From an uncultured Actinomycetes bacterium (GTDB lineage: Bacteria > Actinomycetota > Thermoleophilia > Gaiellales > Gaiellaceae): DNA of 64,000 nucleotides. Both the position numbers and the translations under genes were made by a program. Positions 29,852 through 35,113 of the stretch are shown here, piece after piece; position 1 is the stretch's first letter, and each line of letters begins with the position of its first letter. The stretch is from the NCBI GenBank assembly GCA_963725965.1, contig CAVSAK010000009.1:78290-142289 (forward strand), given 5' to 3'. Under the pieces are notes generated by a model. That model did not search any database. It saw nothing but the letters and a program-made list of their open reading frames with translations, and was not told where the DNA came from.

Positions 29852-31861
29852 GTGGCCGAGCTACGGACAACTTCCGCGTACAGCCCCACCGGCGATCAGC
29901 CGCAGGCGATCGAGAAGCTCGGCGAGGGGATCCTCGCGGGCGAGAAGTTCCAGACGCTGGTGGGCGCGACCGGCACCGGCAAGACGGCGACGATGGCCTG
30001 GACGATCGAGAAGACCGGCCGGCCGGCGCTCGTGATCGCCCACAACAAGACGCTCGCGGCGCAGCTCTGCAACGAGTTCCGGGAGTTCTTCCCGCACAAC
30101 GCCGTCGAGTACTTCGTCTCCTACTACGACTACTACCAGCCAGAGGCGTACGTCCCGCAGGCCGATCTCTACATCGAGAAGGACTCGTCCCGCAACGACG
30201 ACATCGCGCGGCTGCGGCTCGCCGCGACGTCCTCGCTGTTCACGCGGCGCGACGTGGTCGTGGTCGCGTCCGTCTCCTGTATCTACGGATTGGGCTCGCC
30301 GGAGGAGTGGCGCGAGCGGATGATCTACGTCGAGGTCGGCGCCGAGCACGACCGCGACCTCATGCTGCGCAAGCTCATCGACTCGCAGTACGTCCGCAAC
30401 GACACCGTGCTCGGCCGCGGCCGCTTCCGCGTCAAGGGCGACGTCGTCGAGGTGCAGCCGGCGAATCAGGAGACCGCGTACCGCATCTCGTTCTTCGGCG
30501 ATGAGGTGGAGGGGATGACGCACTTCGATCCGCTCACGGGCGAGGTGCTCGCCAAGCTCGACAACCTTTCGATCTGGCCGGCGACGGAGTACGTCACCTC
30601 GCAGCCGACCGTCGAGCGTGCCGTCGACGAGATCCGCGACGAGATGGAGGCGCAGGTCGCGTCGTTCGAGGAGGAGGGAAAGCTGCTCGAGGCGCACCGG
30701 ATCAGGCAGCGCACCGAGTACGACCTCGAGATGCTGAAGGAGCTCGGCTTCTGCAACGGGATCGAGAACTACTCGCGCATCCTCGAAGGCCGCGCCGCCG
30801 GGACGCACCCATTCACGTTGCTCGACTACTTCGCGGACGACTTTGTGGTCTTCGTGGATGAATCCCATCAGACAGTCCCGCAGCTAGGCGGCATGCACGA
30901 GGGCGACCGCTCGCGCAAGCAGACGCTCGTCGACTTCGGGTTCCGGCTGCCGTCGGCGCTCGACAACCGGCCGCTGCGCTTCGACGAGTTCCTGCGCAAG
31001 GTCCCGCAGCTCGTCTTCGTCTCCGCGACGCCCGGGCCTTTCGAGCTCCGCAACTCGACGGTGATCGCCGAACAGCTGATCCGGCCGACCGGCATCGTCG
31101 ACCCCGACGTCGAGCTGCGCGCGACGAAGAACCAGATCGACGACCTGCTCGGCGAGATCCGCGCGCGCGAGGCGGCGGGCGAGCGCGTCCTCGTCACGAC
31201 GCTGACGAAGAAGATGGCCGAGGATCTGACCGACTACCTGCTCGAGTCGGGCGTCAAGGCGCGCTACCTCCACTCCGAGATCGACACGCTCGAGCGGATC
31301 CAGATCATTCGCGAGCTGCGGCTCGGCGAGTTCGACGTCCTGGTGGGCGTCAACCTCCTCCGGGAGGGTCTCGACCTGCCGGAGGTGTCGCTCGTCGCGA
31401 TCCTCGACGCCGACAAGGAAGGCTTCCTGCGCGGGCGCACGAGCCTCATCCAGACAATCGGGCGCGCGGCGCGGAACGTCAACGGCAAGGTGCTGATGTA
31501 CGCCGACAAGCAGACGGAGGCGATCAAGGAGGCGCTCGACGAGACGGACCGCCGCCGCGCCGTCCAGCTGGCGTACAACGAGGAGCACGGGATCGTGCCG
31601 GAGACGATTGCGAAGGGCGTCTCCGACATCGCCGAGCTGCTCCAGCTCGAGTCGCCGACCGTGCCTTCCTCGCGGCGTCGGCGCGGCGCGACGAAGGTCG
31701 AGGGGATGTCGCGCGAGGAGCTCGAGAAGCTCGTCATCACGCTCGAGGAGGAGATGTACCTCGCCGCCGAGGAGCTGCGGTTCGAGTACGCGGCGAAGCT
31801 CCGCGACGAGGTCAAGGACCTGCGGCGCGACCTGCAGGCGATCGAGCAGACCGCCGCGTAG
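29852..31861 (+). CDS. uvrB: Excinuclease ABC subunit B
   Basis: [35 protein letters not shown], helicase C motifs, and a C-terminal UVR domain. Confidence 0.97.
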
Positions 31862-31867
31862 ACGCGG

Positions 31868-34318
31868 CTACTTGCCGACCTTCAGCGCGACCTTCGAGCC
31901 CTTCGTCAGGTGCTTGCCGGGCTTGGGGCTCTGGGAGATCACGTGACCCTTGTTCTTCTTCTTCGACTTGACCTTCGTGATCTTGCCGACACCGCAGTGA
32001 TGGCCCTTGATCGCCCGCTTGGCCGCGGCGAGCGTCTTGGCCTTCACCTTCGGCACGATGCACTTCGTAACGAGCGGCGGCGGGGGCGAGAAGAAGAAGC
32101 TGGCGGTGACCGTGGTGTCGGTGTTCAGCGTGATGACGCAGGTGCCGGTACCGGAGCAGCCGCCGCCCGACCAGCCCAAGAAGCCGGTGCCGGTTGCAGT
32201 CGCTGTGAGCGTGACCTGCGTCCCGGCGCTGAACGCGTGGGAGCAGGTCGACCCGCAATCGATCCCGGCCGGACTGCTCGTGACGCTGCCCCTCGGGCCA
32301 AGTAGTGAGACCGACAAAGTTCGAGTCAGCCCGGGCGTACCGAAGATCGCGTTGACGGTTGTGTCGGCGCTCAGCGTCACCTTGCACGTGCCGGTGCCGG
32401 ATGCCGGTCCGCACCCGCCGCCCGACCATCCCTCGAAGACCGAGCCGGCGGCGGCAGTCGCACTCAGCGTCAGCTGGGTCCCGGAGTCGAACAAGCTCGA
32501 ACAGGTAGAGCCACAGTCGATTCCGGCCGGACTACTCGTCACCGTGCCGGTTCCCGGCCCACCCGTCGTCACCGTCAGTGTGTGCTTCGGAGGCTGCGTC
32601 GGCTGATCCCAGATCGCCTGGTCGCCGTCGTCGATCGGCGTGCTCCCTGTCCCGTTCAAGGCGACGATCTCCGCGCAATACCCGGCGCCGGCTGTAAGTC
32701 CAGTGACGTTGACCGAGACGTCGTGGAACGTGCCGTCGACTTCGGCGGACGGTAGCTGGGTGGGGGTGGTGCTGACGGCGGGTGAGCCCGAGGCGCCGTT
32801 GCTGGTACACCACTCCGAGCTGTCGAAGTCGTACTCGACCACGTAGCTCGTGCTCTGGCCGGCAGCGTTGACGTCGCCGTCGATCGTGGCTGTTGTGAGC
32901 CCGGTGGGGTTGGCGTCGAACGTGTCCACAAACGGTGCGCCCTGGGTCCAGGGGACCTGGCCTCCCTGGGCGTCCCCGTTGGCGTCGGTCGCGACCAGTT
33001 GGGCGCAGTAGGCGATGCCTTCGGTCAGCCCGGTCAGGTCGACGGAGACGAAGTCGTCGTCGGGGATCGGGTCGGTGCCCGCGATCGTCTGCGGCGAGCC
33101 GGACGTGCCGCCGCTCGTGCACCAGTCGGAGGTCGCGAGGTCGTACTCCGCGGCATATGTCGTGGCCTCGCCGTGAGGATCGATCAGGCCCTCCACGGTC
33201 GCCGTGGTCGCTCCGGTCGAGTAGGTGTCGAATGTCAGAACGTCGGGCGTTTCCCCCTGTGTCCACGACAGTTGGGCGCCGTCGACTTCACCGTTGACGT
33301 TGGTCGCGATGAGCCGGGCGCAATAGTCGGAGGCTGCAGTAAGCCCAGTCAGGTCGACGGAGACGCCGTGGAAAACCTCGTCCGTAAATCCGAGATCTGT
33401 CGCGTCGGTCGCTTTCCCCGGCGAGCCGGAAGTGCCGCCGCTCGTGCACCACTCGGAGCTGGACAGGTCGTATTGCACGGCGTAGCTCGTCGTCTCGCCG
33501 TTCGGATTGACGACGCCGGTGACCGTCGCCGTCGAGCCTCCCGTCGGCGAGGCGGCCCCGGTCGTCGCCCCCGGCTTGTCCACGGTGAACCTCACGAAGG
33601 TGGTCCCGAACGCTTCCCCGCCGGCGCTGAAGGCTGCTGCTCGCGCGCAGTACCCGGCTCCGGTCTGCAGTTCGAACAGCTTGACCGAGACGTCGTGGAC
33701 GGTGTTGTCGGTGAAGCCGAGATCAGCGTTGTCTGAGATGTGCGGCGTCGGTCCCGATTCGCCGTCGCTTGTGCACCAGGTTGAGCTGGCGAGGCCGTAC
33801 GCAACGTCGTAGACCGTGTCGTTCCCCTCTGGATTGATCGCGACGTCTACCGTCGCCGACGCCGCCGAGGTTGCGAACCCGTCGAGCGTGTCGACCTCGG
33901 GCGGGTCCTGCTGCCACGTCACCTGCGGCCCGTCGCCTTCTCCGTCGCCGTTGGTCGCAATGAATCGCCCGCAGTACGTGGTGAACCGGGTCAGTCCGGT
34001 CAGGTTCACCCCGACCTCGATGGCAGAGTTGGACCCGAGTGGGGTGGGGCTCGTCGCGTTGTCCGGCGAACCCGACGTGCCACCGCTCGTGCACCACGTG
34101 GAGCTCTGGACGTCCCACTCGACCGCGTAGCTCGTCGTCGCGTCCAATTGGGGGTCGATGTCACCGGCGAATGTTGCCGTCGTGAACCCGGTTGCTTGGA
34201 CAGAAGTCTTCGTGACGACAGGTGCCGCAGCCGAGGCTGCGGCCGGCAGGCAAAGCGTCACGGCGATCCCGAGAAGGCCGACCAGGAAGAGTGGGGCGCG
34301 GCGCGGACGCATGGTCAT
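31868..34318 (-). CDS. Large secreted repeat protein: signal peptide, 5 Cys-bearing FN3-like repeats, 2 InlB-B-repeat-like modules, C-terminal PASTA-like domain
   Basis: Signal peptide MTMRPRRAPLFLVGLLGIAVTLCLPAAASAAA. Five ~105-aa repeats share Y.V.YD..SS.WCTS.G.SG...VSV.LTGLT...YCA...A.N. Two modules contain VTSSPAGIDCGSTCS...GWSGGGC..TGTC. The tail is CIVPKVKAKTLAAAKRAIKGHHCGVGKITKV...GHVISQSPKPGKHLTKGSKVALKVGK. Start alternatives are 34312 and 34369. Confidence 0.8.
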   Translation of the reverse strand: MTMRPRRAPLFLVGLLGIAVTLCLPAAASAAAPVVTKTSVQATGFTTATFAGDIDPQLDATTSYAVEWDVQSSTWCTSGGTSGSPDNATSPTPLGSNSAIEVGVNLTGLTRFTTYCGRFIATNGDGEGDGPQVTWQQDPPEVDTLDGFATSAASATVDVAINPEGNDTVYDVAYGLASSTWCTSDGESGPTPHISDNADLGFTDNTVHDVSVKLFELQTGAGYCARAAAFSAGGEAFGTTFVRFTVDKPGATTGAASPTGGSTATVTGVVNPNGETTSYAVQYDLSSSEWCTSGGTSGSPGKATDATDLGFTDEVFHGVSVDLTGLTAASDYCARLIATNVNGEVDGAQLSWTQGETPDVLTFDTYSTGATTATVEGLIDPHGEATTYAAEYDLATSDWCTSGGTSGSPQTIAGTDPIPDDDFVSVDLTGLTEGIAYCAQLVATDANGDAQGGQVPWTQGAPFVDTFDANPTGLTTATIDGDVNAAGQSTSYVVEYDFDSSEWCTSNGASGSPAVSTTPTQLPSAEVDGTFHDVSVNVTGLTAGAGYCAEIVALNGTGSTPIDDGDQAIWDQPTQPPKHTLTVTTGGPGTGTVTSSPAGIDCGSTCSSLFDSGTQLTLSATAAAGSVFEGWSGGGCGPASGTGTCKVTLSADTTVNAIFGTPGLTRTLSVSLLGPRGSVTSSPAGIDCGSTCSHAFSAGTQVTLTATATGTGFLGWSGGGCSGTGTCVITLNTDTTVTASFFFSPPPPLVTKCIVPKVKAKTLAAAKRAIKGHHCGVGKITKVKSKKKNKGHVISQSPKPGKHLTKGSKVALKVGK

Positions 34319-34401
34319 GAGTGACTCGCGGAGCGGGCGAAAGCTAGCACCGAAAAGATCGCGCTTCAATCAACTGGCCCGGCAGGAACGGGCCGGATCC
34401 A

Positions 34402-34496
34402 CTTACCCACCTTCGGCGCAACCTTGGCGCCTTCCGCACGCGCTGGCGGGGGTTCCGGCTCTACGAGATCACGTGGCCCTTGTTCTTCGGCGAAGT
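34402..34496 (-). pseudogene. Decayed copy of the last ~32 codons (PASTA tail) of the adjacent large gene
   Basis: 34402-34496 aligns with 31871-31966. The 3' 32 nt, GGCTCTACGAGATCACGTGGCCCTTGTTCTTC versus GGCTCTGGGAGATCACGTGACCCTTGTTCTTC, differ at 3 positions. The relic reads ...KNKGHVIS(stop) and, in a shifted frame, ...GAKVAPKVGK versus GSKVALKVGK in the intact gene. Confidence 0.6.
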
Positions 34497-34555: not shown

Positions 34556-35113
34556 ATGCTCGGAGCCGTGATCGGCGCGCTCTTCATCGCGTTCATCACC
34601 GGGGCGCTCGCGCGCTTCGCGCTGCCGGGCCCCGATCCGATGCCGCCGTGGCTCACGCTGACGATCGGCCTCGTCGGATTCGTGGCCGGAACCGGGATCG
34701 TCCTCGCGATCGGCGGGCGGAAGGCCGCCTCCTGGTCGGGGCTGGCGAGCTTCTGCGTTGCGGTCGGGCTGGTGGTGATCTACCGGCGCTTCGTCCAGAA
34801 ACGGCCGCTGTGGGGCAGGGGCGCCTACCGCTTCCCGGACCGCGGTTTCGGCGTCGAGCAGTACCGCGAGCGGCTGAAGCGGGCCGGCATCGACCCCGAC
34901 CAGATCGGGACGCAGCCATTCGGCCTGCAGGCTCGGCCGCCGCTGCAGCCGCCCCTGGCCGGAGCTGGCCACCACCCCGGCTCGGGGGACGCTCCTACCG
35001 ACAACCCGGCGCACTATCTCGGCCTGCTGGAGGAGCTGCACGATACGGGCGTCCTCGACGACGACGAGTACACGGCGGCGCGCACGCGGCTCCTCGAGAG
35101 CCTGCGGGCCTGA
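34556..35113 (+). CDS. GlsB/YeaQ/YmgE-like membrane protein with a C-terminal SHOCT domain
   Basis: N-terminus MLGAVIGALFIAFITGALARFALPG...TIGLVGFVAGTGIV. C-terminus YLGLLEELHDTGVLDDDEYTAARTRLL (SHOCT-like). Confidence 0.68.
   Translation: MLGAVIGALFIAFITGALARFALPGPDPMPPWLTLTIGLVGFVAGTGIVLAIGGRKAASWSGLASFCVAVGLVVIYRRFVQKRPLWGRGAYRFPDRGFGVEQYRERLKRAGIDPDQIGTQPFGLQARPPLQPPLAGAGHHPGSGDAPTDNPAHYLGLLEELHDTGVLDDDEYTAARTRLLESLRA

Follow-up and report, generated by a model that had tools for sequence, protein, structure and literature searches.

Extracytoplasmic PASTA domains (Pfam PF03793) are described for Ser/Thr kinases and for penicillin-binding proteins (PBPs), and structures of both groups were available for comparison, from the Hanks-type kinases PrkC/Stk1 (3py9, 3m9g), PknB (5e10, 5e12, 2kui) and Streptococcus pneumoniae StkP (5nod), and from PBP2x, Staphylococcus aureus PBP1 (7o61) and PonA2 (2mgv). 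Retention of secreted proteins on the envelope is in turn the domain of other modules, such as SLH, LysM, CWB2 and GW/SH3-like, of which a small unit is reused singly or in tandem on unrelated secreted proteins, typically at one terminus. For Clostridioides difficile, CWB2 proteins are described as anchored to the anionic polymer PSII (PMC4973711). Here we analysed a minus-strand gene located within a stretch of 64,000 nucleotides (referred to as the window) of contig CAVSAK010000009.1, from an uncultured member of the family Gaiellaceae in the class Thermoleophilia. Thermoleophilia and Gaiellales are abundant soil actinobacteria, of which almost none has been cultured. The predicted gene product, designated P0001, carries a signal peptide, five FN3-like repeats, two Flg_new_2 modules and a C-terminal PASTA tail (Table 1). 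This tail was found to share sequence and fold with the PASTA domains of kinases and PBPs, and to share its mode of reuse with SLH, LysM, CWB2 and GW modules.

The tail of P0001 is a true PASTA domain by both sequence and fold. Pfam PASTA matched residues 755-816 with 42.7 bits against a cut-off of 23.2, covering model positions 3-64 of 64, and the same domain scored 46.8 bits in a scan of the whole genome. The 65-residue tail block starts at Lys752, one residue ahead of Cys753. A profile of tail sequences matched the PASTA domains of S. aureus PrkC/Stk1 (3m9g at 3e-15; 3py9), Mycobacterium tuberculosis PknB and PonA2. The AlphaFold2 (AF2) model of residues 745-816, with a predicted local distance difference test score (pLDDT) of 91, consists of strands at model positions 8-10, 32-39, 48-53, 59-61 and 65-71 and a helix at 19-28, the arrangement of strand, helix and sheet expected of PASTA. 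When this model was compared with known structures by Foldseek, ranks 1-31 were all PASTA domains, with TMq of 0.66-0.77 and root-mean-square deviation of 1.7-2.9 Å.

Unlike the kinases and PBPs, P0001 carries a single PASTA at its extreme C-terminus and has no membrane span; neither kinase nor transpeptidase domain was detected in it by Pfam or NCBIfam, and the NCBIfam model PknB_PASTA_kin matched the PASTA part only, with 30 bits against a cut-off of 450. The tail also differs from the kinase PASTAs encoded by the same genome, in its attachment to many unrelated heads as well as in composition. Two Cys residues, one located just ahead of Val-Pro in strand 1 and the other at the end of the helix, are invariant in the tail, whereas the four kinase PASTAs of this genome lack both. 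The P0001 tail contains 20 Lys plus Arg and not a single Asp or Glu (isoelectric point, pI, 10.9), in contrast to 13 Lys plus Arg and 77 Asp plus Glu in the rest of the protein (pI 4.05). Net charge ranges from +12 to +24 for the six tails of this genome, described below, but from −6 to +5 for its kinase PASTAs. The position of the tail is strictly kept: in each of the 46 homologs that carry it, no more than 0-12 residues lie between its end and the C-terminus, and in several homologs a poly-Lys extension follows.

The Pfam PASTA scan covered the 2.69-Mb assembly of the window itself (15 contigs), and gave 17 matches. Kinase arrays aside, six long secreted proteins of this genome were found to end in the basic two-Cys PASTA tail. 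In addition to the P0001 FN3 array, these are an S53 sedolisin (pro-kumamolisin) with TIG domains (1366 residues), a seven-bladed FG-GAP propeller, a PQQ propeller with Ig (AIR9-type) repeats, a Kelch-like protein and a protein of low-complexity repeats. A tail-only search combined with Pfam then identified eight further proteins with other heads, including Peptidase_S8, PKD, NHL/SGL, DUF5122, PD40 propellers, FG-GAP_2 and MBG_2/Big_3_5, all with the tail 3-6 residues from the end. Flg_new_2 is located directly ahead of the PASTA tail in four of the six proteins of this genome and in six of eight checked elsewhere, making up a composite C-terminal cassette that sets these Flg_new_2 modules apart from others of the family. 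Tandem versions were also detected, with four or five basic two-Cys PASTAs at the C-termini of P0223, P0224, P0253, P0258 and P0173.

Several other PASTA proteins were noted in the course of these searches. P0223, P0225, P0253 and P0173 share an unassigned N-terminal domain of about 240 residues. Behind it lie two-Cys PASTAs, four or five in tandem, which grow more basic toward the C-terminus and are joined by KKPKKK linkers. P0121 to P0127 are metagenomic proteins of 1,700-3,300 residues with 22-32 tandem PASTA-like domains; as judged from these predicted proteins, PASTA giants of the beads-on-a-string type are also encoded apart from PBPs and kinases. When 1.84 billion representatives were searched with a profile, PASTA-like matches were obtained in 25,363 cluster representatives, the largest number of tandem copies being 32; the ranking is dominated by many-copy PASTA proteins and gives no census of the tail subtype. 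In the same genome as P0001, the transmembrane segment and four-PASTA ectodomain of the PknB-type kinase at G000:C1:4711-6660 (−) recur in nearly identical form at G000:C4:211273-213606 (+). The open frame of the C4 copy continues into a D-Ala-D-Ala ligase-like sequence, and this copy could have arisen by duplication or fusion, or be an artefact of assembly.

The architecture of P0001 is common to dozens of uncharacterised metagenomic proteins of Thermoleophilia and Gaiellales. The tail terminates at least 46 of the 120 listed homologs, and in many of these FN3, Flg_new_2 and PASTA follow one another as in P0001. Those with a named source are from metagenome-assembled genomes (MAGs) of Gaiellaceae and Thermoleophilaceae, and some, from Gaiellaceae, carry the source name 'PASTA domain-containing protein'. 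Two claims of an earlier sequence-only reading of the window had to be revised on these grounds. The combination of domains, which had been taken as unusual, is not a one-off, and PBPs or PknB-type kinases as the normal carriers of PASTA proved too narrow a view in the light of the number of PASTA-like representatives given above. P0001 is thus a new member of an uncharacterised metagenomic family and a valid member of known domain families, by sequence and, for FN3 and PASTA, by fold. What is novel is the tail subtype, basic, with two Cys, strictly C-terminal and promiscuous, and not the combination of three known domain families.

The distribution of the tail is patchy. At the genus level, tail-type matches scoring about 60 bits or higher were present in about 12 of 24 sampled genomes, in as many as five copies. 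Tail-type matches at E<=1e-13 were found in at least 5 of 32 genomes of the family and at least 11 of 201 of the class, both counts being lower bounds as 30 candidates were scored per genome. Traces of gene loss were detected next to the P0001 gene itself. In the closest relative, contig L018 (84% identity), a 501-residue Flg_new_2 plus PASTA paralog, P0062, is located directly upstream. Positions 34319-34494 (−) of the window are collinear with L018 1535-1710, which comprises the 3' end of P0062 and the intergenic spacer, but what is left of the paralog in the window is a relic of its PASTA tail with an in-frame TAG and a 1-nt deletion (Table 1). Two other tail genes, at G000:C12:190673-192892 (−) and G000:C2:1-2088 (+), change frame part-way, with the signal peptide and N-terminal domain in one frame and the remainder in another; these may reflect either real decay or indel errors of assembly. 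Taken together, patchy spread, the relic and the frameshifted copies indicate that the family is accessory and turns over quickly, as surface proteins usually do.

From these observations, we propose that P0001 is a Sec-secreted structural protein of the cell surface. Its acidic body (pI about 4), rich in Thr, Gly, Ser and Ala, would form a stalk of five FN3 beads and two four-Cys Flg_new_2 modules, with one disulfide probably locking each bead. The single basic two-Cys PASTA at the C-terminus, with a net charge of about +20, would attach this stalk non-covalently to the cell envelope. The tail is a promiscuous cassette, often including the preceding Flg_new_2, that is fused to unrelated secreted enzymes and propellers in this lineage; it would bind peptidoglycan and/or an anionic wall polymer so that the head is displayed at the surface. 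The FN3 and Flg_new_2 array may most plausibly serve as a spacer or as an adhesive or coat layer.

We consider it probable, with moderate confidence, that cargo is kept on the envelope through non-covalent binding of the tail to peptidoglycan and/or an anionic wall polymer. This proposal is based on the strictly C-terminal position of a domain of wall-associated type, its presence on unrelated cargo, its multiplied copies, and its positive charge opposite an acidic body. Anchoring of a surface array to the wall by the PASTA tail had already been suggested in the sequence-only reading, and the suggestion gains strength from the range of unrelated secreted proteins that end in it. In its mode of use the tail resembles the SLH, LysM, CWB2 and GW modules of Gram-positive bacteria: one terminal module is found on six proteins in this genome and with at least eight other head types, and in tandem arrays of four to five. 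Tandem copies and poly-Lys extensions make up a pattern typical of non-covalent wall-binding modules. The folds of SLH, LysM, CWB2 and GW are, however, unrelated to PASTA; binding by the tail is a prediction, and the tail is restricted to, and patchy within, Thermoleophilia-type actinobacteria. For PASTA itself, binding to peptidoglycan was shown experimentally with the domains of S. aureus PBP1 (PMC9426605).

Several points weigh against this proposal. In the report on S. aureus PBP1, binding of PASTA to peptidoglycan is described as not universal, and the Arg and Glu residues regarded as predictive of it do not generalise (PMC9426605). The extreme charge of the tail would also fit membrane phospholipids, DNA or mineral surfaces as its partner. 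Given its patchy spread, with as few as 5 of 32 family genomes as the lower bound, the tail is not part of an essential general pathway.

Other roles of the tail were considered against retention. The charge of the tail bears directly on the idea that it is a targeting or sensing module, which, like the PASTA arrays of PknB and StkP, would bind newly made peptidoglycan or lipid II and gather its cargo at the septum or poles, where wall is made, retention being a side effect. The PASTA domains of PknB and StkP direct localisation to sites of wall synthesis, and kinase PASTA domains are the closest solved relatives of the tail in both sequence and fold. Such targeting nevertheless seems unlikely to us: the protease, propeller and Ig/FN3 heads have no evident role in wall synthesis, and the extreme positive charge, together with the tandem and poly-Lys forms, suggests bulk electrostatic retention instead of sensing of a specific ligand. 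A C-terminal export or sorting signal for a dedicated machine, removed or modified after export by a logic like that of the C-terminal domain of type IX secretion or of sortase and exosortase tags, would explain a tail that is strictly C-terminal on unrelated cargo. All full-length members, however, already carry N-terminal Sec signal peptides, and the tail has neither a hydrophobic helix nor a conserved cleavage motif. Its model is a complete PASTA domain of high confidence, and arrays of four to five tandem copies would be unusual for a sorting tag. We therefore regard a sorting function as highly improbable.

The heads and the turnover of the family are relevant to a further alternative, that these proteins are released, and that the basic PASTA docks onto foreign walls, extracellular DNA, anionic polysaccharides or soil clay as part of a toolkit for attack or attachment. 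Some of the heads are degradative (S53 sedolisin, S8 subtilase), the patchy family with variable copy number and gene loss (relic, frameshifts) behaves as expected of accessory ecological functions, and charge alone does not specify a target. Against this stand the FN3, FG-GAP and Ig arrays that lack a catalytic domain and for which this alternative offers no function after release. To our knowledge, PASTA is known only as a binder of components of the bacterial wall. The released form would moreover share its wall-binding mechanism with retention on the envelope, differing only in whose wall is bound. We consider release unlikely, at about the level given to targeting.

The five repeats of about 105 residues in the body of P0001 share 33-51% pairwise identity, with an invariant W-C and Y-C. 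Pfam fn3 (PF00041) matched P0001 with 40.2 bits against a cut-off of 25. A hidden Markov model (HMM) constructed from the five repeats detected 602 copies; of the 120 proteins listed as homologs, P0001 included, 119 contained the repeat, and with so many copies in so many proteins the repeat pattern is far beyond chance. The AF2 model of repeat 3, made with an alignment of 80 repeat sequences, gave a mean pLDDT of 98, and its top 50 Foldseek matches in the Protein Data Bank (PDB) were all FNIII domains (TMq 0.5-0.72), including the RsgI4 sensor, CDO/BOC Fn3, Dscam and titin. We found no dedicated Pfam model for the Cys-pair subtype of the repeat, longer homologs matching only the strand-F region of several FN3-clan models, and phmmer with whole P0001 gave no match among PDB sequences.

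Comparison of repeat copies strongly supports the prediction that the two Cys form a pair, with one disulfide per module. Among about 620 distinct copies, 550 carried both Cys and about 58 carried neither, while a single complete copy was mismatched; the other odd copies are cut by protein ends. This both-or-neither pattern is what supports pairing. In the approximately 58 copies without Cys, the WCTSGG loop is absent or gives way to a short 'YG', while His of a TYHYR motif takes the place of the second Cys. In the model of repeat 3, Cys44 lies in a short helix just past strand C. Cys86 is found where strand F begins, and strands C and F are neighbours in the FN3 sheet; this modelled placement is compatible with a disulfide. 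Mature P0001 contains 20 Cys (five times two, two times four, and two), an even number in every domain.

The closest described arrays are those of 'TTYHYR' type, with partial matches to fn3, Pur_ac_phosph_N and PhoD_N, which are common in surface proteins of actinobacteria and Chloroflexi. Both kinds share the FN3 fold and the strand-F motif Y-x-(A/Y)-R-(L/V)-(I/V)-A-T-N, and both were detected by the repeat HMM in the same proteins. The P0001 subtype differs in having the loop SSxWCTSGGxSGSP in place of 'YG' past strand C and Cys in place of the His of TYHYR, and these two changes always occur together.

The two modules of about 80 residues that follow the repeats belong to Flg_new_2 (PF18998; 'InlB B-repeat-containing protein' at NCBI). 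Together they gave 33 bits over two stretches against a cut-off of 23.6, module 2 alone giving 21.8 bits, slightly under this cut-off; the Cys-x3-Cys ... Cys-x5-Cys pattern typical of the family is present. The order of parts in P0001 had been predicted well by the sequence-only reading. A gene at 31868-34318 with a signal peptide is borne out by the open reading frame (ORF) and its start; the five Cys-bearing FN3-like repeats by Pfam and by AF2 with Foldseek; the two InlB-B-like modules by PF18998; and a PPPP linker followed by a PASTA tail by the agreement of Pfam, AF2 and Foldseek, the coordinates 31871-32062 given for PASTA being right within one codon. One disulfide per module, as had been suggested, now appears strongly supported by the co-variation of Cys, and a survey of the genome for paralogs with PASTA tails led to the six tail-bearing secreted proteins.

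The minus-strand ORF spans 31868..34369, and translation from the ATG at 34318 gives the 816-residue protein. This start is supported by the closest homologs, which begin likewise (MTMRPRP...), and the signal-peptidase motif LPAAASA, followed by Ala, is kept in all of them. Lipoprotein anchoring through Cys23 was rejected. The segment VTLC(23)LPAAASA has Leu at −1, and since the Cys position varies in orthologs (Gly, Ser or Ala) while LPAAASA is kept, Cys23 is not part of a lipobox. Sortase anchoring was also rejected, as the end of P0001, ...KGSKVALKVGK, lies inside the PASTA fold, with neither LPXTG nor a hydrophobic stretch. One sortase gene is located elsewhere in the same genome. Both covalent and lipid anchors are thus excluded for P0001.

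The P0001 gene and uvrB are convergent. The uvrB stop (31859-31861) is separated from the P0001 stop by 6 nt (31862-31867), as had been noted before. The description of the gene as lying between uvrB and uvrA holds in the literal sense, but four other genes separate it from uvrA. The same order is found in contig L019, in which a 70%-identical ortholog is located next to uvrB with matching gene order as far as uvrA. UvrB of this genome is 80-83% identical to that of uncultured Thermoleophilia MAGs, 74% to that of Gaiellales and 70% to that of Solirubrobacterales. In ten GTDB relatives, five closest (UvrB 80-83% identical) and five more distant, no P0001 homolog was found within up to 4 kb fetched on each side of uvrB, and the uvrB-adjacent position is kept only in the two closer metagenomic contigs, L018 and L019. 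Since adjacency to uvrB is not common to these relatives, DNA repair is a neighbour only and not a functional partner, and a functional tie to uvrB/uvrA was rejected. A search of a collection of genome contigs with whole P0001 found no related loci, and promoter and terminator scans gave nothing useful. The divergent neighbour at 34556-35113 (+) encodes a small membrane protein (MLGAVIGALFIAF...), for which two or three helices are predicted and which carries the motif ...DDDEYTAARTRLLESL at its C-terminus; this gene overlaps the region of upstream paralog loss.

Table 1. Position and supporting evidence of the P0001 gene, the parts of its product and the upstream relic
Feature	Residues	Position in window	Strand	Evidence and remarks
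Whole gene	1-816	31868..34318	−	816 codons plus TAG stop (31868-31870); start backed by homolog N-termini
Predicted Sec-type signal peptide (MTMRPRRAPLFLVGLLGIAVTLCLPAAASA, cleaved before AAP)	1-30	34229..34318	−	sequence; cleavage site placed by the AXA rule
FN3-like repeat 1 (Cys76, Cys116)	33-137	33908..34222	−	repeat alignment and repeat HMM
FN3-like repeat 2 (Cys182, Cys224)	139-246	33581..33904	−	repeat alignment and HMM; most divergent copy
FN3-like repeat 3 (Cys291, Cys333)	248-356	33251..33577	−	AF2 pLDDT 98; Foldseek; modelled copy
FN3-like repeat 4 (Cys400, Cys438)	357-460	32939..33250	−	repeat alignment and HMM
FN3-like repeat 5 (Cys504, Cys548)	462-573	32600..32935	−	Pfam, alignment and HMM; best Pfam fn3 stretch 488-560
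Flg_new_2 (divergent InlB B-repeat) module 1, four Cys	578-660	32339..32587	−	Pfam PF18998 33 bits; 30.6 in genome scan
Flg_new_2 module 2, four Cys	665-742	32093..32326	−	65% identical to module 1
Pro-rich linker SPPPPLVT	744-751	32066..32089	−	sequence; Pro-rich linker also in homologs
Basic two-Cys PASTA tail (Cys753, Cys775)	752-816	31871..32065	−	Pfam, profile, AF2, Foldseek, charge
Relic of the last ~30 codons (~95 nt) of a lost paralog's PASTA tail, 5' region of the gene		34402..34496	−	collinearity with L018

In a search of the literature, in which subscription journals were thinly covered and absence is unproven, neither the tail subtype nor a use of PASTA as an anchor placed generally at C-termini was found described. 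The basic two-Cys C-terminal PASTA, usually located behind Flg_new_2, may represent a new class of non-covalent wall anchor that defines much of the displayed surface proteome, including proteases, propellers and FN3/Ig arrays, of this Thermoleophilia/Gaiellales lineage; we judge the case for this wider view to be evenly balanced. In the Cys-pair FN3 subtype, a coupled loop insertion and His-to-Cys change would provide a clean case of conversion to a disulfide-locked bead. If the proposal is true, the 65-residue tail would be a compact candidate for a display tag in Gram-positive hosts. It would also add a new function to PASTA, otherwise known from wall-sensing kinases and PBPs, extending it from a sensor or PBP accessory to a general module of surface display like SLH, LysM and CWB2. 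Such a tag for wall-retained proteins would let the surface proteome of these bacteria be read from metagenomes.

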